Shown: positions 2,645-32,210, numbered from the stretch's first letter. The stretch is 36,248 nucleotides of DNA from a virus (IMGVR_UViG_2778261316_000009); one strand, 5' to 3'. Program-made: numbers and translations. The notes: generated from the letters alone by a model not told the origin.

Positions 2645-3217
2645 TCATAATTCTGTGCTGGTGGCAGGAATTAATTTCTGCCAGATAGCGGAAACATATT
2701 TTGCCTGATGACGAGCATCAGCCAGGGCGTTGTGCCGTTCGCCATCGAAAGGCATGTCCATTTTGGGGTCGAATCCGATGAAACGCCCAAGCGTAACGAT
2801 CGTGCGTACATCGTGGTCATTCCAGCACGCCCATGGGCAGATTTGTCCTGCTCGCTCATAAGCCCCACGTAAAATTACGTTGTCGAAGGTGGCTCCGTTA
2901 CCCCAGACTTTTAAATATTTCGTATTGTCTGCGTGCCGGTTAATGAAATGGTTCAGTTCAGAGAGTGCATCGCTGATCGACAAAGTATCATCAATACAGA
3001 TTGCAGCTCGTGCTTCAGGGCTTTGTTTCAACCACCACAGGATGGTATCGCCGCCAGGTGTGGCCCCTTGCTCCATAGCACTTTCCAGGCTGACAACCGT
3101 ATAGAATTCTTGTCCGATGTCTCCGGTTTCTGGGGTGAAGAACACCGCGCCAATGGAAACGATTGGTGCATCCTTATTTTTCCCCATCGTCTCAAGGTCG
3201 ATCATTAAGTTGTTCAT
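2645..3217 (-). CDS. DnaQ-like 3'-5' exonuclease
   Basis: MNNLMIDLETMGKN ... PIVSIGAV start and conserved acidic/His residues typical of phage DEDDh-type exonucleases; start ATG overlaps the upstream gene stop (TGATG). Confidence 0.65.
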   Translation of the reverse strand: MNNLMIDLETMGKNKDAPIVSIGAVFFTPETGDIGQEFYTVVSLESAMEQGATPGGDTILWWLKQSPEARAAICIDDTLSISDALSELNHFINRHADNTKYLKVWGNGATFDNVILRGAYERAGQICPWACWNDHDVRTIVTLGRFIGFDPKMDMPFDGERHNALADARHQAKYVSAIWQKLIPATSTEL

Positions 3218-3768
3218 CACTTCACCTCCTGCGGCGGTTCCGGTAGCGGCATCCAGTGAGTTGCTTGCTCAATACCATTACCCGGCTTAATCGTTGCATC
3301 TCCGCGCCGAAAGGTGCTTCCGGTATAGCGTGCGGAGCATATTAGCGGTTCAACCAGAGAGCTATCGAAATTCACCGAAATAAGCACGTTCTGGCCCTTT
3401 TCAGGCATTCGATCACTACAGCTTATCCAACCATCCGGAATCACCGGAGAGTTGCCAGCCTGAAGTATGGCGGCATCGTATGGCTCTTCATCGAGATCAA
3501 TTGGCGAGTCGCATTTCGGGCAATAACCATCACAGTCACCTACTGCGGAAACTTCAATAACCTCTCTGCATGACCAGCACTGAACGGTAGGAACATAAAG
3601 CTCCGCATTAAACGCAGCAATAGCCTTATCAATCACCTTGACAGCATCAGCCATTGCGTAGCCGAGATTACCGCCGTCGCTTTGTGCTGCTGCTTTGCTG
3701 AGTACTTCGCGTATCTGGTGCAGGCGATCTATTGATACAGGACCGTGCGCCGGGTGGTTAGTTGTCAT
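3217..3768 (-). CDS. DUF551 domain phage protein
   Basis: C-terminal DRMPEKGQNVL ... THWMPLPEPP pattern typical of DUF551; ATGA overlap with the upstream gene. Confidence 0.6.
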   Translation of the reverse strand: MTTNHPAHGPVSIDRLHQIREVLSKAAAQSDGGNLGYAMADAVKVIDKAIAAFNAELYVPTVQCWSCREVIEVSAVGDCDGYCPKCDSPIDLDEEPYDAAILQAGNSPVIPDGWISCSDRMPEKGQNVLISVNFDSSLVEPLICSARYTGSTFRRGDATIKPGNGIEQATHWMPLPEPPQEVK

Positions 3769-4037
3769 GGCCTAATCTCCGTTCTGCCGCCGAGAAGGCG
3801 AATAGCAATCCGTTCCCGGAAAGTTAACTGCCGATGCTTGCCGCGAGCATTTACGATTTCCGGTTTCCCATTTGGTGGGTAATTAACCCTGACTGATTGA
3901 CCATCCAGCGCATGAGACGCCTCAAGTAGCGCAGATTTTAAATGCGGAGGACACTCAGTTTGCACTCGTTCGCCGTCTGAAATTACACCTGCAATACCCT
4001 GCAACATGCTCGCTAAATTACTGAGGTATTTTTTCAT
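3765..4037 (-). CDS. hypothetical phage protein
   Basis: 90-aa ORF with a strong RBS (GGGGGAG) and translational coupling on both sides. Confidence 0.5.
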   Translation of the reverse strand: MKKYLSNLASMLQGIAGVISDGERVQTECPPHLKSALLEASHALDGQSVRVNYPPNGKPEIVNARGKHRQLTFRERIAIRLLGGRTEIRP

Positions 4038-4038
4038 C

Positions 4039-4596
4039 TCACTCCCCCTTCACGCCAATGCCAGCGTCGGCACGTTCGGCTTCACTTTGTTCCCAAAACC
4101 ACTTGTGAAGCGCCATAAGCTCTTCGTCAATCGGTGCATATTTGCGGTCAAAGTAGGCCTGAGCATCTTTCTCAGACTCGTCAGGCAATTCACCAGGCCC
4201 AAACAGCGTGTTATAAATCCATGACAGCCCGTTCTTAGCGTCACCAGTTGCCTGCCATTCGATAATCGCAGCTTGCATGACCAGAATGTTCTTCCCGATT
4301 AACAGGTCCAGTTCTTTGTGTCGGTTGCAGATATATGCATTCTCTCTCTGTAATTCAGCATTGCGCTTCTCTGCGGCTTCCAGCGCATTTACCAGATCAT
4401 CAACGATTCCAGCAGATTGGCGTGCGTAATCTGTAATTGCCAGCTCGCATTCAATTTCAGTTCCGTTTTCGTTTGTGTGGCAAATAGCAAAGTAATCGGA
4501 GTCGATTTCGTTATCAGCCAAACGCCTCAGCGTGTCGGCAACCAGCACTCCGTTTTCAATCAGTATCTCTGTTGCGCGTTTGTTGATGTTGCTCAT
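4039..4596 (-). CDS. hypothetical phage protein
   Basis: 185-aa ORF with AGGAGG RBS; stop overlaps the next start. Confidence 0.5.
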   Translation of the reverse strand: MSNINKRATEILIENGVLVADTLRRLADNEIDSDYFAICHTNENGTEIECELAITDYARQSAGIVDDLVNALEAAEKRNAELQRENAYICNRHKELDLLIGKNILVMQAAIIEWQATGDAKNGLSWIYNTLFGPGELPDESEKDAQAYFDRKYAPIDEELMALHKWFWEQSEAERADAGIGVKGE

Positions 4597-6541: not shown

Positions 6542-6734
6542 AAAAAGGCCATTTCCATTCAGGGTCTGATGGAAAGACTTCAGCCTGTTCCAAAGCACGG
6601 TGTAAAGAGAATACAACTCCAGCCATAATCTGATGTTTCCCATTGGTCCAGCTATCGCCGCTCTGATCTACAGGAGCGGCTATGTCGTATGACCAAACGA
6701 CTTCACCACTATTGTTTAAAATCTGGACTTTCAT
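6459..6734 (-). CDS. small hypothetical protein (91 aa), cassette 1 minus-strand gene
   Basis: start MKVQILNN lies inside repeat A; converges on and overlaps the 3' end of the 6296-6541 gene. Confidence 0.4.
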   Translation of the reverse strand: MKVQILNNSGEVVWSYDIAAPVDQSGDSWTNGKHQIMAGVVFSLHRALEQAEVFPSDPEWKWPFSICPNSESTFQKIGQKVALEEHQPTVS

Positions 6735-6827
6735 TTTGTTCTTTAACCTCCAGATACGGGCGTTTAATTGCCCCGCCGAACAGCTCTTTTCCGCAATAGC
6801 TGCAATGTCTTTCGCGCATCAGCCTGC
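6693..6827. repeat. repeat A copy 1 (about 135 bp), second copy at 7321-7455, a few mismatches
   Basis: direct comparison; A copy 1 is contiguous with B copy 2. Confidence 0.8.
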
Positions 6828-6917
6828 GCATTCACCACAACGCTAAGGATTCTCTCTGGTTGAAAATACTTAGCTGTTATGTGCCTGTCTTTTCACCACT
6901 TCAGGCTCGGTGGTATC
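6828..6917. repeat. repeat B copy 2
   Basis: identical to 6173-6262 as read. Confidence 0.8.
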
Positions 6918-7143: not shown

Positions 7144-7311
7144 TTGTTGAATAATCGACAAAACCCAACTTAAATTTTCGTCAGTGGGCTCGATGCCATG
7201 TGCGGTGAGCTCACTTTTCAAAACTCCAAGCAATTCAGAGCTGATTTTCAATATATCTGCTTGATTTCTAACTATTCCCACTTTTTCCTCCCTTGGTCTA
7301 CGCGCGGTCAT
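7105..7311 (-). CDS. small hypothetical protein, cassette 2 minus-strand gene
   Basis: 68-aa ORF; an internal GTG with GGGAGG RBS near 7282 is an alternative start; converges on the 6952-7143 gene. Confidence 0.35.
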   Translation of the reverse strand: MTARRPREEKVGIVRNQADILKISSELLGVLKSELTAHGIEPTDENLSWVLSIIQQSLKPSLSKLFIE

Positions 7312-7320
7312 GTTTTACGC

Positions 7321-7469
7321 CCAAACGACTTCACAGTTATTGTTTAAAATCTGGACTTTCATTTTGTTCTTTAACCTCCAGATACGGGCGTTTAATGGCC
7401 CCGCCGAACAGCTCTTTTCCGCAATAGCTGCAATGTCTTTCGCGCATCAGCCTGCGCATTCACCACAAC
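7321..7469. repeat. repeat A copy 2; carries a 15-codon truncated MKVQILNNNCEVVWA-stop remnant on the minus strand
   Basis: direct comparison with 6693-6840. Confidence 0.8.
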
Positions 7470-7471
7470 TC

Positions 7472-7509
7472 TAAAAACAAATGTAGGATATCCAACATGT
7501 GAGTGTCAA
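7472..7509 (-). promoter_or_regulatory. candidate pL promoter with embedded operator
   Basis: minus-strand TTGACA (7509-7504), 18-bp spacer, TACATT (7485-7480); 18-bp palindromic operators at 7481-7498 and 7516-7533. Confidence 0.55.
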
Positions 7510-7595: not shown

Positions 7596-8249
7596 TCAAA
7601 AATCCATTATTACTTGTTTGACAAGACCAACTATTCTGCAGTTCTCACCGCATTCAATAGTTTTATAGTTAGGATTTAGTGGGACGAGATACCTGTTCGG
7701 CCAGTCCTCAACAAATTTTTTGAGTGTCGCTTCTTGCCCACCATTGATATGGGCAACAACGATTTTTCCGTTAATACACTCTGTATCAATAATATCTGGC
7801 TCTACGATAACGATAGAACCTTCTGGTATCGATGGTGAGCCGAGGGGATTGGTCATTGAATCACCACGGACCCGTAGTGCAAATGCCATTTCTGATACAA
7901 GGGCGGTAGTATAAACCCACTCTTCAGCATCTTCTTTCCTGACACCAGGCTCCGTCATTGTCCATGAACCCGCCTGAACCCACGAGATGAGGGGGACTTT
8001 TTTAACTGCGAATATTTCAGGTTTTAGATTTATCTTTGGTTCAGGCGAGCCTTTTCCGCTAACAAGCCACAGAGGATCGCATTTAAGTGCGTTGGCTAGG
8101 GCTTGAAGGTTGGCTCCATTTGGTTGGTAGTCGTCCTTTTCCCATCCAGTAACCGTGACACGGTTCACACCAGTCAAATCAGCCAGTGCTTGTTGTGTCA
8201 GGTTCAGTTCTTTTCGCCTTTGGCGAATACGATCACTCATGTTCATCAT
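7596..8249 (-). CDS. cI-like prophage repressor (HTH plus S24 LexA-type peptidase domain)
   Basis: N-terminal HTH LTQQALADLTGVNRVTVTGWE; C-terminal VRGDSM autocleavage-domain motif; flanked by operator palindromes. Confidence 0.85.
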   Translation of the reverse strand: MMNMSDRIRQRRKELNLTQQALADLTGVNRVTVTGWEKDDYQPNGANLQALANALKCDPLWLVSGKGSPEPKINLKPEIFAVKKVPLISWVQAGSWTMTEPGVRKEDAEEWVYTTALVSEMAFALRVRGDSMTNPLGSPSIPEGSIVIVEPDIIDTECINGKIVVAHINGGQEATLKKFVEDWPNRYLVPLNPNYKTIECGENCRIVGLVKQVIMDF

Positions 8250-8344: not shown

Positions 8345-8542
8345 ATGCGGAAATCCGACGTGATTAATTATTTCGGCGGAGTTTGTAAAACCGCCGAAGC
8401 CCTAGGTATTAAGCATCCGTCTGTTTCAGAGTGGCCTGAGATTATTCCTGAAGGCCGAGCGTACCAGTTAGAAAAAATTACTAACGGGAAACTGAAAGTT
8501 GACGTGTCTTTATATCAAAAGACTAACAGTGCTGCGGCATAA
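8345..8542 (+). CDS. Cro-like DNA-binding regulator
   Basis: 65-aa protein divergent from the repressor, GGGAGA RBS, downstream of pR. Confidence 0.7.
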   Translation: MRKSDVINYFGGVCKTAEALGIKHPSVSEWPEIIPEGRAYQLEKITNGKLKVDVSLYQKTNSAAA

Positions 8543-8569: not shown

Positions 8570-9154
8570 GTGGGTAAAGAACCTGAATGGAAAGTTGATA
8601 AACAACCAGCATGGCTGGTGGCAGCAATACGAAGAACGATTGCTGATTTACCTCATGGCTATGAGGAAGCAGCAGAAATTCTTGGTTTGTATAAATCTGA
8701 TGATATCACCCCAGCAAAAGATCAATTGCATAACAGACTGCGTAGCGGTGGGGATCAAATTTTTCCACTTGAGTGGGCCATGGTTTTACAGGATGCCAGT
8801 GGTACCAGGCATGTAACAGATGCAATAGCCCGTCGTAGTAATGGGGTGTTTGTGCCGCTGGTGGTCATTGATGACATTGACAATGGTGACATTAATCAGC
8901 GGCTGATGGAGTCAATAGAATGGATTGGCAAGCATTCCCAGTACTTACGCAAGGCAACTGCTGATGGAGTTATTGACCAAGCTGAGCGTGAGCAAATCGA
9001 AGAGAACAGCTACCAAGTAATGGCGAAGTGGCAGGAGCATTTAACACTGTTATTTCGTGTTTTTTGTGCGCCGGAAAAGAGTAACGCCCGCGAGTGTGCA
9101 GCTCCGGGCGTCGTGGCGTCGATTGCTTCTGGTTGTGGAGAAACTAACGCATGA
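8570..9154 (+). CDS. phage regulatory protein, CII-like / YmfL-like
   Basis: 194-aa ORF, GTG start with GAGGAA RBS; position after cro and size match the e14 ymfL slot; assignment from recall. Confidence 0.45.
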
Positions 9155-9489
9155 ACAGTTTAACAACACACTACCGTCGCTCGCAACTGATTGCGCTTCC
9201 TGTACCGGGTGGAAAAGCGAAGGTGGAGTATTGCTATGCAGTGAATGTACCAGGTGACAGGGAAATTGTAACCCACAGCTTTGCAGAGTGGGCTGTGGGG
9301 GATTTCAACCGGCAGAAGGAGACAGTCCTTTGCGACAAGTTAACCGCTGGTTCAAAGATCACTACGGAGTGCCCGTCAGAGTCATTCGTTGGGAACCGGA
9401 AACACAACGGGTTATCTACCTCCGCGAAGGCTATGAGCATGAGTGCTTCAGTCCGCTCGAACAGTTTCGTCGTAAATTCAGGGAAATAG
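9151..9489 (+). CDS. hypothetical protein (YmfM-like slot); possible frame change into the overlapping 9288-9509 ORF
   Basis: ATGA overlap with the upstream stop; the C-terminal half is Ser-rich and low-complexity, whereas the alternative frame ends in a stop overlapping the next start. Confidence 0.4.
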
Positions 9490-9498
9490 AGGTCGGTC

Positions 9499-10440
9499 AT
9501 GAGCACTAAATTAACCGGCTATGTATGGGATGGTTGCGCAGCGTCAGGCATGAAATTATCCAGCGTGGCAATTATGGCCCGCCTGGCTGATTTCAGTAAT
9601 GACGAAGGTGTGTGCTGGCCATCAATTGAAACCATTGCCCGCCAGATTGGCGCGGGGATGAGTACCGTCAGAACGGCTATCGCACGGCTGGAAGCAGAAG
9701 GCTGGTTAACGCGTAAGGCGCGTCGCCAGGGTAACCGCAATGCGTCGAATGTTTATCAGCTTAACGTTGCGAAGCTTCAGGCAGCGGCATTTTCTCAACT
9801 GTCAGATTCTGACCCGTCAAAATCTGACGCATCAAAATCTGACCCGTCAAAATTTGATGCGTCGAAATCTGGCAAAAAAGCGGGTTTTCACCCGTCAGAA
9901 TCTGGCGGGGATCCGTCAGTAAAATCAAAACATGATCCGTCAGATAAAAAACCTTCTCGTCCGGACGCTTCGCAACCGGACACGCAGACGGCTGAACAGG
10001 ATTTTTTAACTCGCCATCCTGATGCGGTTGTATTCAGCCCTAAAAAACGCCAGTGGGGGACGCAGGATGATTTGACCTGCGCACAGTGGCTCTGGAAAAA
10101 AATCATCGCCCTGTACGAGCAGGCTGCCGAATGTGACGGCGAGGTGGTTCGTCCCAAAGAACCGAACTGGACAGCCTGGGCAAACGAAATTCGCCTGATG
10201 TGTGTGCAGGATGGTCGTACTCACAAACAAATCTGCGAGATGTACAGCCGCGTCAGCCGCGATCCGTTCTGGTGCCGTAACGTGCTCAGCCCGTCGAAGC
10301 TGCGGGAAAAATGGGATGAGCTTTCCCTGCGCTTATCGCCGTCCGTCAGCACATACACAGAAAAACGTGAAGATCCGTACTTCAAATCCAGTTACGACAA
10401 CGTGGACTACAGCCAGATCCCGGCAGGATTCAGGGGGTGA
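9499..10440 (+). CDS. phage replication initiation protein (O-like) with an internal iteron-bearing linker
   Basis: N-terminal HTH block (SSVAIMARLADFSNDEGVCWPSIETIARQIGAGMSTVRTAIARLEAEGWL) typical of phage replication proteins; central SDPSK/SDASK repeat; Trp-rich C-terminal domain. Confidence 0.6.
   Translation: MSTKLTGYVWDGCAASGMKLSSVAIMARLADFSNDEGVCWPSIETIARQIGAGMSTVRTAIARLEAEGWLTRKARRQGNRNASNVYQLNVAKLQAAAFSQLSDSDPSKSDASKSDPSKFDASKSGKKAGFHPSESGGDPSVKSKHDPSDKKPSRPDASQPDTQTAEQDFLTRHPDAVVFSPKKRQWGTQDDLTCAQWLWKKIIALYEQAAECDGEVVRPKEPNWTAWANEIRLMCVQDGRTHKQICEMYSRVSRDPFWCRNVLSPSKLREKWDELSLRLSPSVSTYTEKREDPYFKSSYDNVDYSQIPAGFRG
9800..9950 (+). repeat. iteron array (candidate origin of replication) inside the replication gene
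   Basis: four tandem 15-bp units TCTGAC(C/G)C(G/A)TCAAAA followed by degenerate CCGTCAGA copies and an A-rich stretch. Confidence 0.5.
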
Positions 10441-10442
10441 TC

Positions 10443-10931
10443 ATGAGTCTTTTGAATGAAGTTCAGAAATTCATTGAAGCCCATCCGGGGTGTACTTCCG
10501 GAGACATTGCGGATGCTTTTGCAGGTTACTCACGGCAGCGCGTTCTGCAGTCAGCAAGCAAGTTACGTCAGAGTGGGCGTGTGGCTCACCGTTGTGAAGG
10601 AGATACACGCAGACATTTCTCGCGCCTGACTGAGAGAGCGCAGGAGCCGGAACCACAACCAGTTCGTGAAACCAGACCTGTGCGCAAGTTCTATGTCGGC
10701 ACTAACGACCCCCGGGTGATTTTGTGCCTGACCCGCCAGGCTGAAGAACTGGAGTCGAGGGGCTTATACCGTCGTGCTGCAACGGTGTGGATGGCGGCAT
10801 TCCGTGAAAGCCACTCCCAGCCAGAACGAAACAATTTTCTGGCGCGTCGTGAACGGTGTTTACGGAAAAGCAGTAAGCGGGCTGCATCAGGTGAAGAGTG
10901 GAATCTCTCAGGGAATTACGTGGGGGCTTAA
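10443..10931 (+). CDS. PerC-like transcriptional regulator
   Basis: AEELESRGLYRRAATVWMAA matches the PerC-family signature as recalled; GGGGG RBS before the ATG. Confidence 0.5.
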   Translation: MSLLNEVQKFIEAHPGCTSGDIADAFAGYSRQRVLQSASKLRQSGRVAHRCEGDTRRHFSRLTERAQEPEPQPVRETRPVRKFYVGTNDPRVILCLTRQAEELESRGLYRRAATVWMAAFRESHSQPERNNFLARRERCLRKSSKRAASGEEWNLSGNYVGA

Positions 10932-11584
10932 TGAGTAATAAATATTGCCAGGCGCTGGCGGAACTGCGGAACAAACCAGCCCATGAACTGAAGGAAGTGG
11001 GCGATCAGTGGCGCACGCCGGACAACATTTTCTGGGGAATTAACACCCTGTTTGGCCCGTTTGTTCTGGATCTGTTCACTGACGGTGATAACGCCAAATG
11101 TGCTGCGTATTACACGGCGGAAGACAACGCGCTGGCGCATGACTGGTCAGAACGCCTTGCGGAGCTTAAAGGTGCTGCCTTTGGTAATCCCCCATACAGC
11201 CGCGCCAGTCAGCATGAGGGGCAATACATCACCGGCATGCGTTACATCATGAAGCATGCCAGTGCCATGCGTGATAAAGGCGGGCGCTATGTTTTCCTGA
11301 TCAAAGCTGCCACCAGCGAAGTGTGGTGGCCGGAAGATGCAGATCATATTGCTTTTATTCGCGGGCGTATTGGTTTTGAACTGCCTGCCTGGTTTATCCC
11401 GAAGGATGAGAAGCAGGTGCCGACAGGCGCTTTCTTCGCTGGTGCTATTGCTGTTTTCGACAAGACCTGGAAGGGACCGGCAATCAGCTACATCGGGCGC
11501 GATGAACTTGAGGCATGTGGTGAGGCCTTTCTGGCGCAGGTTCGCCAGCAGGCAGAAAAACTGGTCAGGGAGATGGCGGCATGA
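10931..11584 (+). CDS. phage DNA N6-adenine methyltransferase (Dam-like)
   Basis: NPPY catalytic motif (FGNPPYSR); start MSNKYCQ at a TAATG overlap with the upstream stop. Confidence 0.75.
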   Translation: MSNKYCQALAELRNKPAHELKEVGDQWRTPDNIFWGINTLFGPFVLDLFTDGDNAKCAAYYTAEDNALAHDWSERLAELKGAAFGNPPYSRASQHEGQYITGMRYIMKHASAMRDKGGRYVFLIKAATSEVWWPEDADHIAFIRGRIGFELPAWFIPKDEKQVPTGAFFAGAIAVFDKTWKGPAISYIGRDELEACGEAFLAQVRQQAEKLVREMAA

Positions 11585-11907
11585 CGACGTTAACTCAATG
11601 CCAGCAGCAGGTGCTGGATATGCTGATTTCTTATCAGAAAGAACGTGGCTTCCCGCCAACCAATCAGGAGGTGGCAACCATGCTGGGATACCGTTCAGTG
11701 AATGCAGCGGTGGAGCATCTTCGCGCACTGGAGAAAAAAGGCGTCATCACGATAAAGCGTGGCGTGGCCCGGGGCATCACGCTTCATACCGCGGTGAAGG
11801 ACGACGACAGCGAGGCGGTCGGGATTATCCGCGCACTGCTTGCCGGTGAGGCAAACGCCAGGCTGCGTGCAGCCCACTGGTTACATGAGAGGGGCCTGAA
11901 AGTATGA
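11581..11907 (+). CDS. LexA-type DNA-binding domain protein
   Basis: QQVLDMLISYQKERGFPPTNQEVATMLGYRSVNAAVEHLRALEKKGVI resembles the LexA N-terminal winged helix; ATGA coupling. Confidence 0.5.
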   Translation: MTTLTQCQQQVLDMLISYQKERGFPPTNQEVATMLGYRSVNAAVEHLRALEKKGVITIKRGVARGITLHTAVKDDDSEAVGIIRALLAGEANARLRAAHWLHERGLKV

Positions 11908-15491: not shown

Positions 15492-16544
15492 ATGAAAAAT
15501 ACTGTAAAAATAAACAGTGTTGATTTAATCAACGCTGATTGCCTGCATTTTATTCAGTCCCTGCCTGATGATTCCATTGACCTGATTGTTACCGATCCGC
15601 CTTACTTCAAGGTGAAACCTAACGGTTGGGACAATCAGTGGAAAGGGGATGAAGATTACCTTAAGTGGCTGGACCACTGTCTGGCCCAGTTCTGGCGGGT
15701 GTTGAAACCTGCCGGAAGCCTTTACCTGTTCTGTGGGCATCGCCTAGCATCTGATATTGAGATCATGATGCGTGAACGTTTCAACGTGCTTAACCATATC
15801 ATCTGGGCGAAGCCGTCCGGACGTTGGAATGGGTGTAATAAAGAAAGTCTGCGCGCATATTTTCCTGCCACAGAGCGCGTTCTGTTTGCTGAACATTACC
15901 AGGGGCCATATCGCGGCAAAAGTGACGGCTATGCGGCAAAAGAAAGGGAACTCAAACAGCACATAATGGCACCGCTGATATCGTATTTCAGGGATGCTCG
16001 TGCCGAACTGGGTATAACGGCAAAACAAATTGCCGAAGCCACAGGTAAGAAAAATATGGTTTCCCACTGGTTTGGTGCCAGTCAGTGGCAGTTGCCGAAT
16101 GAGGCTGACTATCGGAAGTTACAGGCACTGTTTTCCCGTATAGCGGCAGAGAAGTTTCAGGAACAACAACTGGAACAACCACACCACCAGCTGGTGGCAT
16201 CTTATGATTCACTGAATCGCAAATATTCTGAATTGCTGGATGAGTTTAAATCTCTCCGGCGCTATTTCTCCGTATCAGTCTCCGTGCCTTATACCGATGT
16301 CTGGACGCATAAGCCCGTTCAGTTCTACCCGGGTAAACATCCGTGCGAGAAACCGACGGATATGCTCCGGCAAATAATCAATGCCAGTAGTCGACCTGGT
16401 GATCTGGTTGCTGATTTCTTTATGGGATCCGGTTCCACAATAAAAGCAGCAATGGCGCTGGGGCGTCGGGCGTTAGGTGTTGAACTTGAGTCAGAGCGGT
16501 TTAATCAGACGGTGAAAGAGGTAAGTGAACTGGTGGGGAAATAA
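15492..16544 (+). CDS. DNA methyltransferase (N6-adenine/N4-cytosine family) in the late-region moron position
   Basis: DPPY catalytic motif (DLIVTDPPYF) N-terminal and AdoMet-binding FxGxG (DFFMGSGST) C-terminal. Confidence 0.8.
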   Translation: MKNTVKINSVDLINADCLHFIQSLPDDSIDLIVTDPPYFKVKPNGWDNQWKGDEDYLKWLDHCLAQFWRVLKPAGSLYLFCGHRLASDIEIMMRERFNVLNHIIWAKPSGRWNGCNKESLRAYFPATERVLFAEHYQGPYRGKSDGYAAKERELKQHIMAPLISYFRDARAELGITAKQIAEATGKKNMVSHWFGASQWQLPNEADYRKLQALFSRIAAEKFQEQQLEQPHHQLVASYDSLNRKYSELLDEFKSLRRYFSVSVSVPYTDVWTHKPVQFYPGKHPCEKPTDMLRQIINASSRPGDLVADFFMGSGSTIKAAMALGRRALGVELESERFNQTVKEVSELVGK

Positions 16545-30692: not shown

Positions 30693-30715
30693 ACCTTACA
30701 TTAATTTATGTCTTT

Positions 30716-30741
30716 CATGCCCACTTCGGTGGGCTTTTTTA
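30716..30741 (+). terminator. rho-independent terminator after the moron
   Basis: GCCCAC-TTCG-GTGGGC followed by T6. Confidence 0.7.
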
Positions 30742-30755
30742 TATCCGGAGTTTAT

Positions 30756-32210
30756 ATGACGTGGAAAGACAGGCTTCAGGACGCGTCATTTCGCGGTGTG
30801 CCGTTTAAGGTTGAAGAAGAAAGTGCGGGAACAGGTCGCCGTGTGGAAACACACGAATATCCGAACCGCGACAAACCCTATACCGAAGATCTGGGAAAAG
30901 TCACTTTCCGCCCGTCCATCACGGCTTATGTGGTGGGCGATGACTGCTTTGACCAGCGCGATCGCCTGATTGACGCGCTGAATAAACCCGGTCCCGGCAC
31001 GCTTGTCCACCCGACTTACGGTGAGCTGAAAGTCTGTGTTGACGGAGAGGTTCGGGTCAGCACATCGAAAAGTGAAGGGCGTATTGTCCGCTTTGACCTG
31101 AAGTTTGTCGAAGCGGGAGAACTCTCTTACCCCACATCAGGTGCGGCGACGGCGCAGACGCTGATGTCATCCTGTTCTGCACTGGATGACTGCATCAGTG
31201 ACAGCTTCAGCGGTTTCAGTATCGATGGTGTGGCGGATTTCGTGCAGAACGACGTTATCGGTAATGCCAGCATAATGCTGGGGTATGTTTCTGATGCGAT
31301 GAAAGTGGTGGATTCTGCCGTATCGGATGCCGCCAGGCTGTTGCAGGGGGATATCTCGGTACTTCTGCCGCCGCCATCGTCAGGCAAAAATTTCGTTGAG
31401 CAGGTGCAGAAAATGTGGCGTACCGGGAAACGCCTTTATGGTAACGCCAGCGACCTGGTCACCATGATCAAAACGCTTTCCGGTGTCAGCCTCGGCAGCG
31501 ATCTGCAACCGCGCGGCGTCTGGAAAACGGACAGTAAAACCACCGCCACGGCGACGCAGCAGCGTAACGTGGTTGCCAGCACCCTTCGTGCGACCGCAAT
31601 CAGCGAAGCGGCGTATGCCGTCACCCGATTGCCTGCGCCAACAACTTCCGCGGTGATGCAGAATGCCGCAGTGGGGCAGTCAACAACTTCCGCGGTGATG
31701 CAGAATGCCGCAGTGGGGCAGTCAACAACTTCCGCGGTGATGCAGAATGCCGCAGTGGGGCAGTCAACAACTTCCGCGGTGATGCAGAATGCCGCAGTGG
31801 GGCAGTCAACAACTTCCGCGCAGAGCACCGGCTGGCCTTCCGTCACGCATCCGGCACTGAACAATGCACCGGCGGTGAAAAACACGGTTGACCTGCCAAC
31901 GTGGGAAGAACTGACTGACATTCGCGACACACTGAATACGGCAATTGATAAGGAGTTGTCCCGTACAACCAGTGATGCGCTGTTTCTGGCGCTGCGCCGG
32001 GTGAAAGCAGATCTGAATGCGGATATCAACACGCGCCTTGAACAGTCTGCTCGGATCATTCAGCGCACGCCGGATGAGGTCTTACCCGCGCTGGTGCTGG
32101 CGGCGACCTGGTTTGATAACGCGGCGCGTGACGCGGACATTATCCGGCGTAATGCCATTACGCATCCCGGCTTTGTGCCGGTGATCCCTCTGAAGGTGCC
32201 AGTGCAATGA
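30756..32210 (+). CDS. Mu N / gp43-like DNA circularisation protein with an internal tandem repeat
   Basis: MTWKDRLQDASFRGVPFKVEEE start typical of the DNA circularisation N-terminal domain; CCGGAG RBS. Confidence 0.75.
   Translation: MTWKDRLQDASFRGVPFKVEEESAGTGRRVETHEYPNRDKPYTEDLGKVTFRPSITAYVVGDDCFDQRDRLIDALNKPGPGTLVHPTYGELKVCVDGEVRVSTSKSEGRIVRFDLKFVEAGELSYPTSGAATAQTLMSSCSALDDCISDSFSGFSIDGVADFVQNDVIGNASIMLGYVSDAMKVVDSAVSDAARLLQGDISVLLPPPSSGKNFVEQVQKMWRTGKRLYGNASDLVTMIKTLSGVSLGSDLQPRGVWKTDSKTTATATQQRNVVASTLRATAISEAAYAVTRLPAPTTSAVMQNAAVGQSTTSAVMQNAAVGQSTTSAVMQNAAVGQSTTSAVMQNAAVGQSTTSAQSTGWPSVTHPALNNAPAVKNTVDLPTWEELTDIRDTLNTAIDKELSRTTSDALFLALRRVKADLNADINTRLEQSARIIQRTPDEVLPALVLAATWFDNAARDADIIRRNAITHPGFVPVIPLKVPVQ
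31641..31820 (+). repeat. perfect 42-bp tandem repeat, four copies plus a partial, in frame (TTSAVMQNAAVGQS)
   Basis: identical units starting at 31641, 31683, 31725 and 31767. Confidence 0.9.

Follow-up and report, generated by a model that had tools for sequence, protein, structure and literature searches.

The 36,248-nucleotide viral DNA IMGVR_UViG_2778261316_000009 (hereafter the window, by which we mean the whole stretch) comes from a lambdoid Shigella/Escherichia coli phage of the SfII/SfIV-like kind and holds, on its plus strand, a 942-bp open reading frame (ORF; positions 9499-10440) whose product of 313 amino acids (aa) was recognized as a replication initiator by Pfam, PHROG, and AlphaFold2 analyses. 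In the middle of this gene lies a cluster of short direct repeats, or iterons, which we describe here as a candidate replication origin. Escherichia phage vB_EcoM-720R4 (ON470603) has this gene at 100% identity, and the counterparts in SfIV and SfII, Shigella phages that convert serotype, are 98.8-98.9% identical and bear the database labels "DNA replication protein O," "primosomal protein," or "replication protein," whereas the RefSeq product name of the gene is just "helix-turn-helix domain-containing protein"; variant forms are found in Shiga toxin (Stx) phages.

An iteron array within the initiator gene

In an AlphaFold2 model built on 66 homologues, the N-terminal part of the initiator (aa 1-98) forms a winged helix, which a linker predicted to be disordered (aa 102-161; predicted local distance difference test score, pLDDT, below 50) connects to a helical C-terminal domain of the lambda-O type (aa 162-282, encoded at 9982-10344 on the plus strand and also delimited by BLASTP), for which pLDDT is mostly ~90 or above with a dip to ~71 near aa 211-220; comparison with DnaT marks out a C-terminal tail, SQIPAGFRG, encoded at 10411-10437 on the same strand. 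It is precisely this low-confidence segment that the repeats, together with the A-rich stretch after them, encode, so that all repeat sites fall within the linker-coding part of the gene, between two confidently modeled domains, as had been proposed from the sequence alone. A match to PHROG 391 ("replication initiation O-like") at 8e-136 takes in the whole protein. Its C-terminal domain aligns with lambda O over aa 173-277 (BLASTP, E 7e-26, the alignment starting only from residue 70 on) and with phi80 gp15 at 36% identity over 112 aa, the homology to both spanning residues 169-278. At the other end, Pfam HTH_36 matches residues 23-70 (E 4e-11), and a Pfam scan at E <=0.01 returned HTH_36, GntR, HTH_29, PaaX, DnaD_N, RP-C, and MarR, with no match to Phage_rep_O (which we take to be PF04492) or to Rep_3. 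The DnaD_N score of 19.4 bits lies under the 27-bit cut-off, and PHROG families named "DnaD-like helicase loader" and "replisome organizer" match at 4e-29 and 6e-12, which could be accounted for by a shared winged helix and C-terminal domain. NCBIfam returned no initiator-specific family, a sequence search of the PDB gave weak MarR matches only, and a Foldseek search of the PDB with the model gave weak winged-helix (MarR/ArsR) matches to the N-terminal domain only (E ~3e-3), with nothing informative for the C-terminal domain.

The tandem 15-bp repeats that the sequence-only reading had placed inside an O-like gene are recovered by Tandem Repeats Finder at 9808-9871, with a period of 15, 4.3 copies, 81% matches, and the consensus TCTGACCCGTCAAAA, a second solution having a period of 30, 2.1 copies, and 88% matches. 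Translated within the ORF they give SDSDPSKSDASKSDPSKFDASKSGKK, which bears out the predicted SDPSK/SDASK peptide repeat. The repeat unit is nevertheless better read, in another register, as a 13-bp palindrome, GTCARAWTCTGAC, with the dyad symmetry GTCA-N5-TGAC, the arms of the site (GTCAGAWTCTGAC) pairing at 6/6 positions, as would suit a site occupied by a dimer. Searching the whole window for this palindrome with up to two mismatches yielded 11 strand-hits, all within 9801-9906, where shuffled sequences gave a mean of 2.6 and none of 100 shuffles attained 11. These hits correspond to six sites starting at 9801, 9816, 9831, 9846, 9861, and 9894: iterons 1-5 (9801-9873) follow one another at 15-bp phasing, a spacer with A6 and T4 tracts (AAAAAAGCGGGTTTTCAC) occupies 9874-9893, and iteron 6 (GTCAGAATCTGGC) lies at 9894-9906, 33 bp beyond iteron 5. 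Neither this search nor Tandem Repeats Finder detected a further repeat cluster of the iteron kind elsewhere in the window. As for DnaA boxes (TTWTNCACA), 66 matches were found against 61 expected, that is, chance level, and none clustered at the array, which leaves a plasmid-like model of DnaA-assisted initiation unsupported.

Two copies of a constant box, GATCCGTCAG, are located just downstream of the iterons (9910-9919 and 9934-9943), 24 bp apart and with one Dam site (GATC) in each, and a possible degenerate seventh site (ATCAAAACATGAT) lies between them at 9924-9936. The degenerate CCGTCAGA copies noted earlier are indeed present at 9892, 9913, and 9937, the last two within a 15-nt direct repeat, GATCCGTCAGWWAAA, at 9910 and 9934. 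A candidate DNA-unwinding region extends over 9911-9955, where we found the gene's least stable 40-mers, which rank within the least-stable ~3% of the window's 40-mers; the A-rich stretch anticipated after the repeats thus exists, if in modest form (33% GC, 44% A). Of 87 distinct related genes, 61 carry two GATCCRTYA boxes, spaced by 24 bp in 53. The boxes are present irrespective of iteron type and encode invariant DPSV...DPS residues; protein-level and DNA-level constraint on them are not separable here. The presence of GATC in both boxes, along with a phage-encoded Dam, makes methylation control of the origin possible.

Co-variation and constraint among related genes

A one-genome-per-species scan added 80 loci to those collected earlier, bringing the total to 89, and a tandem array was found at the equivalent place in the linker in 86 of them. 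The window-type unit and its 15-bp phasing recur in phiNP, as they do in 65 of 87 related loci. When the N-terminal domains were grouped at 85% identity, they formed 20 clusters, and the repeat unit changes between clusters while remaining constant within one, the types that differ by cluster including GTCAA-N3-TTGAC, TCCAGAWTCTGGA, TTCAGATTCTGAA, the 23-bp CATCGGGTCAAAGTGACCTGATG, and the 21-24-bp GTGCAGGAGATTCACC. Phage mEp460, for instance, carries four to five of the 23-bp units, Stx2a_1447 five of the 21-24-bp units, locus L008 GTCAA-N3-TTGAC at 15 bp, and locus L009 GTCCAGAWTCTGGAC at 15 bp, when phiNP and locus L010, whose N-terminal domains resemble that of the window, retain the window unit (in ~10 copies in L010). 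The last iteron again comes after a 33-bp step in phiNP and also in L009, where the site in last position is of L009's own iteron type (TCCAGAATCTGGA) and hence co-varies with the rest of its array. Dyad symmetry is retained in all unit types although the encoded peptides (SDPSK, PETER, DPSNI/DPSTV, GSAGDSP) are unrelated.

The comparison with phiNP also points to constraint acting on the DNA itself. Over 100 codons, the region encoding the N-terminal domain shows 78% identity, third codon positions accounting for 49 of the 65 differences, when the iteron block is 92.5% identical, that is, above the flanking coding sequence; the homology stops just past the origin, at a mosaic junction. Because a logo of iterons chosen by their DNA pattern would be partly circular, we replaced it with a codon test in which repeats were located from the encoded peptide only (S[DE]xS[KE]; 209 instances in 69 distinct genes) and compared with a background taken from elsewhere in the same genes. 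In these repeats, the first serine is encoded by TCT in 83% of cases (9% in the background), the second by TCA in 86% (16% in the background), and lysine by AAA in 89% and AAG in 0%. Synonymous codons this close to fixation cannot be explained by selection on the peptide.

With regard to iteron number, whose comparison across relatives the sequence-only reading had suggested, it does vary, in 15-bp units, yet not freely. Window-type sites number 3-9 per gene (median 5, 65 loci), but the full-length 942-bp form is found in 14/14 isolated phages with the gene. In bacterial chromosomes, where 1,945 of 5,426 complete E. coli genomes carry the origin segment (coverage >=80%), a spread sample of complete genomes showed 39 of 40 full-length matches to be of equal length and one to be longer by 15 bp, and the 313-aa form dominates the protein clusters (one cluster of 5,414 members). 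K-12-type strains (~2.46 Mb in MG1655-type genomes) retain the iteron segment at 98.9% identity, at a locus that would correspond to yfdO of the cryptic prophage CPS-53, and loci L017 and L018, at a similar chromosomal position, have an initiator copy that lacks the first ~78 codons. If this identity holds, K-12 has an orphan origin beside a defective initiator.

The DnaT-like tail and the early region

The window protein ends in ...SYDNVDYSQIPAGFRG, and its last residues, SQIPAGFRG, are identical at 8 of 9 positions to the end of E. coli DnaT, SQIPPGFRG (K-12 dnaT, minus strand, 3979-4518 in our record L096). These nine residues are the sole BLASTP alignment between the two proteins, neither the N-terminal domain of DnaT nor its three-helix single-stranded DNA-binding domain was detected in the initiator by BLASTP, and Pfam and NCBIfam scans returned no DnaT family; judged by these comparisons, the initiator is not a DnaT homologue beyond its tail. 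Two relatives match DnaT over ~20 residues, namely L048, which ends in ERDINAISRPDTTIPPGFRG (E 7e-8), and L012, which ends in VNHISEPDTEIPPGFRG and has a DnaC-like gene directly after it, as dnaC follows dnaT in the host. The resemblance to DnaT probably explains why these phage genes have been named "primosomal protein" or "Primosomal protein I."

When tail classes were defined by the last 15-25 residues, 57 related initiators were found to end in ...P.GFR(G/S), and this GFR tail is carried by at least three different C-terminal domains: the lambda-O type of the window, Phg_2220_C (phiNP, L038, L048), and the type of Stx2a_1447. Tryptophan-rich, lambda-like tails (GHWNSPEAWENTL or DFDNTDWIYG) occur at nine loci, and a Phage_lambda_P gene follows in all nine, when a lambda P gene is absent from all 50 GFR-tail loci whose downstream sequence is readable. 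A DnaC-like gene is among the next three ORFs of the ORF chain at one of these 50 loci, and a tblastn search with a DnaC-like reference matched three GFR-tail loci overall (L008, L012, L082). In the literature that we searched, no function is assigned to the C-terminal tail of DnaT and no paper connects DnaT-like tails with phage initiators; how DnaT hands DnaB-DnaC to restart sites was still called unknown in a structural paper of May 2026 (PMC13377028). Another initiator, at 3001-3903 of locus L087, has ...GGTDDDFI at its end, reminiscent of SSB and its acidic C-terminal tail (DDDIPF), and is followed by a DnaC-like gene; it may represent another case of tail mimicry.

The absence of a helicase or helicase-loader gene downstream, remarked upon from the sequence alone, was borne out: Pfam and PHROGs scans of the early-region ORFs recognized no helicase, primase, AAA+ loader, or lambda P, none is listed in the annotation of vB_EcoM-720R4 (ON470603), and L009, L010, and L014, like most relatives, have no loader gene either. 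Directly after the initiator comes a PerC-like gene (YfdN/PerC-like, with an N-terminal winged helix; 10443-10931, plus strand, Pfam PerC 5e-9), in a coupled arrangement with it. Across the GFR-tail class, however, the first downstream neighbor is usually a DNA methyltransferase (20 loci) or the PerC-like gene (only 18 of the 50 readable loci), the latter being absent next to the initiator in phiNP, L010, and L014; more generally, downstream and other neighbor genes are exchanged freely among relatives. The PerC-like gene is probably not part of the replication module, and as an obligatory partner or loader it was rejected, for it is missing beside many initiators with identical iterons and tail.

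The rest of the early region is that of a lambdoid phage, with a cI-like repressor gene (7596-8249, minus strand), cro (8345-8542), a YmfL/CII-like gene (8570-9154), and a DUF4222 gene (9288-9509) directly upstream of the initiator. Two genes downstream of the latter is the Dam methylase gene (10931-11584), followed by a gene for a 108-aa protein (11581-11907) and, further downstream, by RusA and KilA-N genes. This 108-aa product comprises the LexA DNA-binding domain (LexA-DBD) alone, without the peptidase domain, and is conserved in mEp460, Stx2a_1447, and several further loci, where it likewise lies downstream of the initiator. The window also holds a second DNA methylase gene (15492-16544), a 171-nt direct repeat (6676-6846 and 7304-7474; 94% identity, 628 bp apart) with the leftward early genes on one side and the cI-like repressor gene on the other, and, at 31639-31820, a perfect 42-bp tandem repeat (4.3 copies, 100% matches) that is in frame (42 bp being 14 codons) with the 500-aa tail-region ORF at 30708-32210.

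A probable lambda-like origin without a recognizable loader

Taken together, the anatomy of the locus, the homology of its initiator, the co-variation of iterons and N-terminal domains, and the constraint at the DNA level point to origin recognition of the lambda kind, while the lack of a recognizable P, DnaC-like, or DnaB-like gene implies that helicase recruitment must differ from that of lambda. On this basis, we consider it highly probable that the repeats are the replication origin of an SfII/SfIV-like lambdoid phage, situated within the linker-coding part of its own initiator gene, and that host DnaB is brought there by the initiator, most likely by way of that protein's C-terminal domain and DnaT-like tail. 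Upon derepression, rightward early transcription would lead to synthesis of the initiator, whose N-terminal winged-helix dimers would bind the six GTCA-N5-TGAC sites and build a nucleoprotein complex; this complex would then destabilize the adjoining A-rich stretch (9911-9955), flanked by the GATC boxes, and, with no phage P, DnaC-like, or DnaB-like gene at hand, the initiator itself would bring in host DnaB. Its likeliest handle would be the C-terminal domain with the DnaT-like tail, the latter making contact with host DnaB-DnaC or some other DnaT partner. In this scheme, we infer the binding and unwinding steps, the activity as an origin, and what the tail binds.

That host DnaB/DnaC might be recruited directly had been conjectured from the sequence alone, and the DnaT-like tail suggests a concrete candidate for this role. 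We propose only tentatively that the tail, along with the lambda-O-type domain, engages host DnaB-DnaC, an idea prompted by mimicry and by the association of neighboring DNA segments. Similarly tentative is the broader notion that IPxGFRG-COOH is a short linear motif recruiting host DnaB-DnaC or DnaC, such that loader-less phages would mimic DnaT at a duplex origin instead of using a P-type loader, and that the same motif would serve as the hand-over element of DnaT at restart sites.

Several considerations weigh against this interpretation. The reading is a computational one, and our literature searches found no paper on this origin or on modules with a solo initiator. The AT-rich stretch is short and moderately unstable at most, and a phasing of 15 bp, or ~1.4 helical turns, against 20-24 bp in lambda, means that the geometry of the complex is not simply a copy of the lambda O-some. 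As the iterons are adjacent to the sequence encoding the N-terminal domain, some co-variation is expected from linkage in mosaic genomes; likewise, the association of tail class with the P gene links neighboring DNA segments, in loci that are not phylogenetically independent. Deletion forms also occur in bacterial genomes, with a 303-aa protein lacking two units (87 members) and, rarely, proteins of 282-287 aa lacking the array. Finally, early ORFs with no assignable function could hide an unrecognized loader, and the current primosome model favors the N-terminal domain of DnaT for DnaB/DnaC recruitment (PMC13377028).

Could the repeat be nothing but a slippage-prone, low-complexity peptide linker (SDPSK/SDASK) without function at the DNA level, the true origin lying elsewhere? 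The region does encode a predicted disordered linker, sites range from 3 to 9 among relatives in 15-bp steps, and some prophages have lost the array; but proven iterons are found at the matching position in lambda and phi80, whose initiators have the same type of C-terminal domain (PMC7466680), synonymous codons in the repeats are near-fixed and far from the background of the same genes, all unit types are dyad-symmetric in DNA despite unrelated peptides, and the array is better conserved than the coding sequence on its flanks. We thus regard this explanation as barely plausible. It is very unlikely, too, that the initiator, or else another of the operon's winged-helix proteins, binds the sites for the sake of regulation (autoregulation, transcription roadblock, or handcuffing copy control), with replication starting at a distinct site. 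Plasmid iterons act in both initiation and negative control, and the operon encodes other DNA-binding proteins (Cro, the YmfL/CII-like protein, the PerC-like winged-helix protein, and the LexA-DBD protein); however, the unit co-varies with the N-terminal domain of the very protein in which it is encoded rather than with freely swapped neighbors, an adjacent AT-rich element with conserved boxes is required in an origin but would be superfluous in a pure operator, and the window has no other such repeat cluster.

A third possibility leaves the origin as we describe it and changes the loader: DnaB would be loaded by an unrecognized phage protein, such as the PerC-like product, that of the upstream DUF4222 gene, or that of an early ORF of unassigned function, rather than through the DnaT-like tail. 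The coupled arrangement of the PerC-like gene with the initiator, its position as first downstream ORF in 18 of 50 GFR-tail loci, the presence of DUF4222 ahead of the initiator in the window, L011, and L014, and the existence of several early ORFs without assigned function speak for it. Nevertheless, many initiators with the same tail and iterons do without the PerC-like gene, its product resembles a transcription factor made of a winged helix and PerC, and none of the candidate proteins bears an ATPase or lambda-P signature, which leads us to deem such a loader unlikely and to retain recruitment by the initiator itself.

If the origin and its specificity determinants are as defined here, these prophages could be typed by origin, replication incompatibility or cross-activation between co-resident prophages could be predicted, and minimal replicons could be constructed. 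The absence of a loader, combined with the DnaT-like tail, offers a simple genetic handle on how lambdoid phages lacking P load DnaB, and the same handle bears on the role of the conserved DnaT C-terminus in replication restart. By itself the origin is of moderate interest, which would be higher if the tail proved to be a DnaB-DnaC recruitment motif.

Among known systems, the closest is lambda, in which the location of ori within gene O is experimentally established (PMC7466680). As in lambda, in gene 15 of phi80, and in the Stx phages 933W and P27, iterons and an AT-rich tract lie mid-gene between the parts encoding the DNA-binding and C-terminal domains (PMC7466680); the iterons annotated in lambda and phi80 are at the equivalent position of the gene, each is dyad-symmetric, and the C-terminal domains are homologous, the one in lambda O being the domain that interacts with P. 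Iteron number is itself variable in lambda-type origins, with 4 in lambda and 6 in Stx phages. The claim that the locus mirrors lambda therefore stands for iteron position and the homologous C-terminal domain, and does not for the N-terminal domain, which belongs to another Pfam family (HTH_36, not Phage_rep_O), nor for P: at the sequence level, the testable features of a lambda-type embedded origin are present, and the departure from the lambda O family lies in the N-terminal domain and the P partner. Besides, the sites here are of 13 bp at 15-bp phasing against ~18-19 bp at 20-24-bp spacing in lambda, the genes downstream are PerC-like, Dam, LexA-DBD, and RusA instead of P, and a DnaT-like tail replaces the tryptophan-rich one. 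To the right of their AT-rich regions, both lambda (39160-39179, or ~1161-1180 in our record L006; TCGTCAGAGAATTCTGGCGA) and phi80 (~8780-8800 in L007; TCGTCCGAGAATTCTGACGA) contain a sequence like the iteron CCGTCAGAATCTGGCGG, at the homologous place in the protein (SSENSGES vs. PSESGGD), possibly a relic, possibly a shared element.

An HTH_36 "replication protein" of this kind is found beside the immunity region in the Eru5, 6, 8, 11, and 13 regions of Stx phages, and the Eru typing papers, which go by gene content alone, describe no iterons, origin, or route of helicase recruitment (PMC8951638). Stx2a_1447 has the gene order of the Eru6 reference Stx2a_WGPS2, with near-identical gene coordinates, and its initiator gene has the terminal 76 bp and the downstream block in common with the window but a different N-terminal domain and different iterons. 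In iteron plasmids (pSC101 RepA, R6K pi, RK2 TrfA, F RepE), a winged-helix initiator binds direct repeats by an AT-rich region and host DnaB-DnaC is used. The present locus likewise combines a single winged-helix initiator with repeated sites beside an AT-rich region, but it differs from them in having no Rep_3, no enrichment in DnaA boxes, an origin inside coding sequence, and a C-terminal domain of the lambda-O type. Lastly, the likeness to E. coli DnaT and the dnaT-dnaC operon lies in the near-identical extreme C-terminus and in the gene order of L012; unlike DnaT, which PriA and PriB target to forks, the phage initiator would go to a duplex origin via its own sequence-specific domain.

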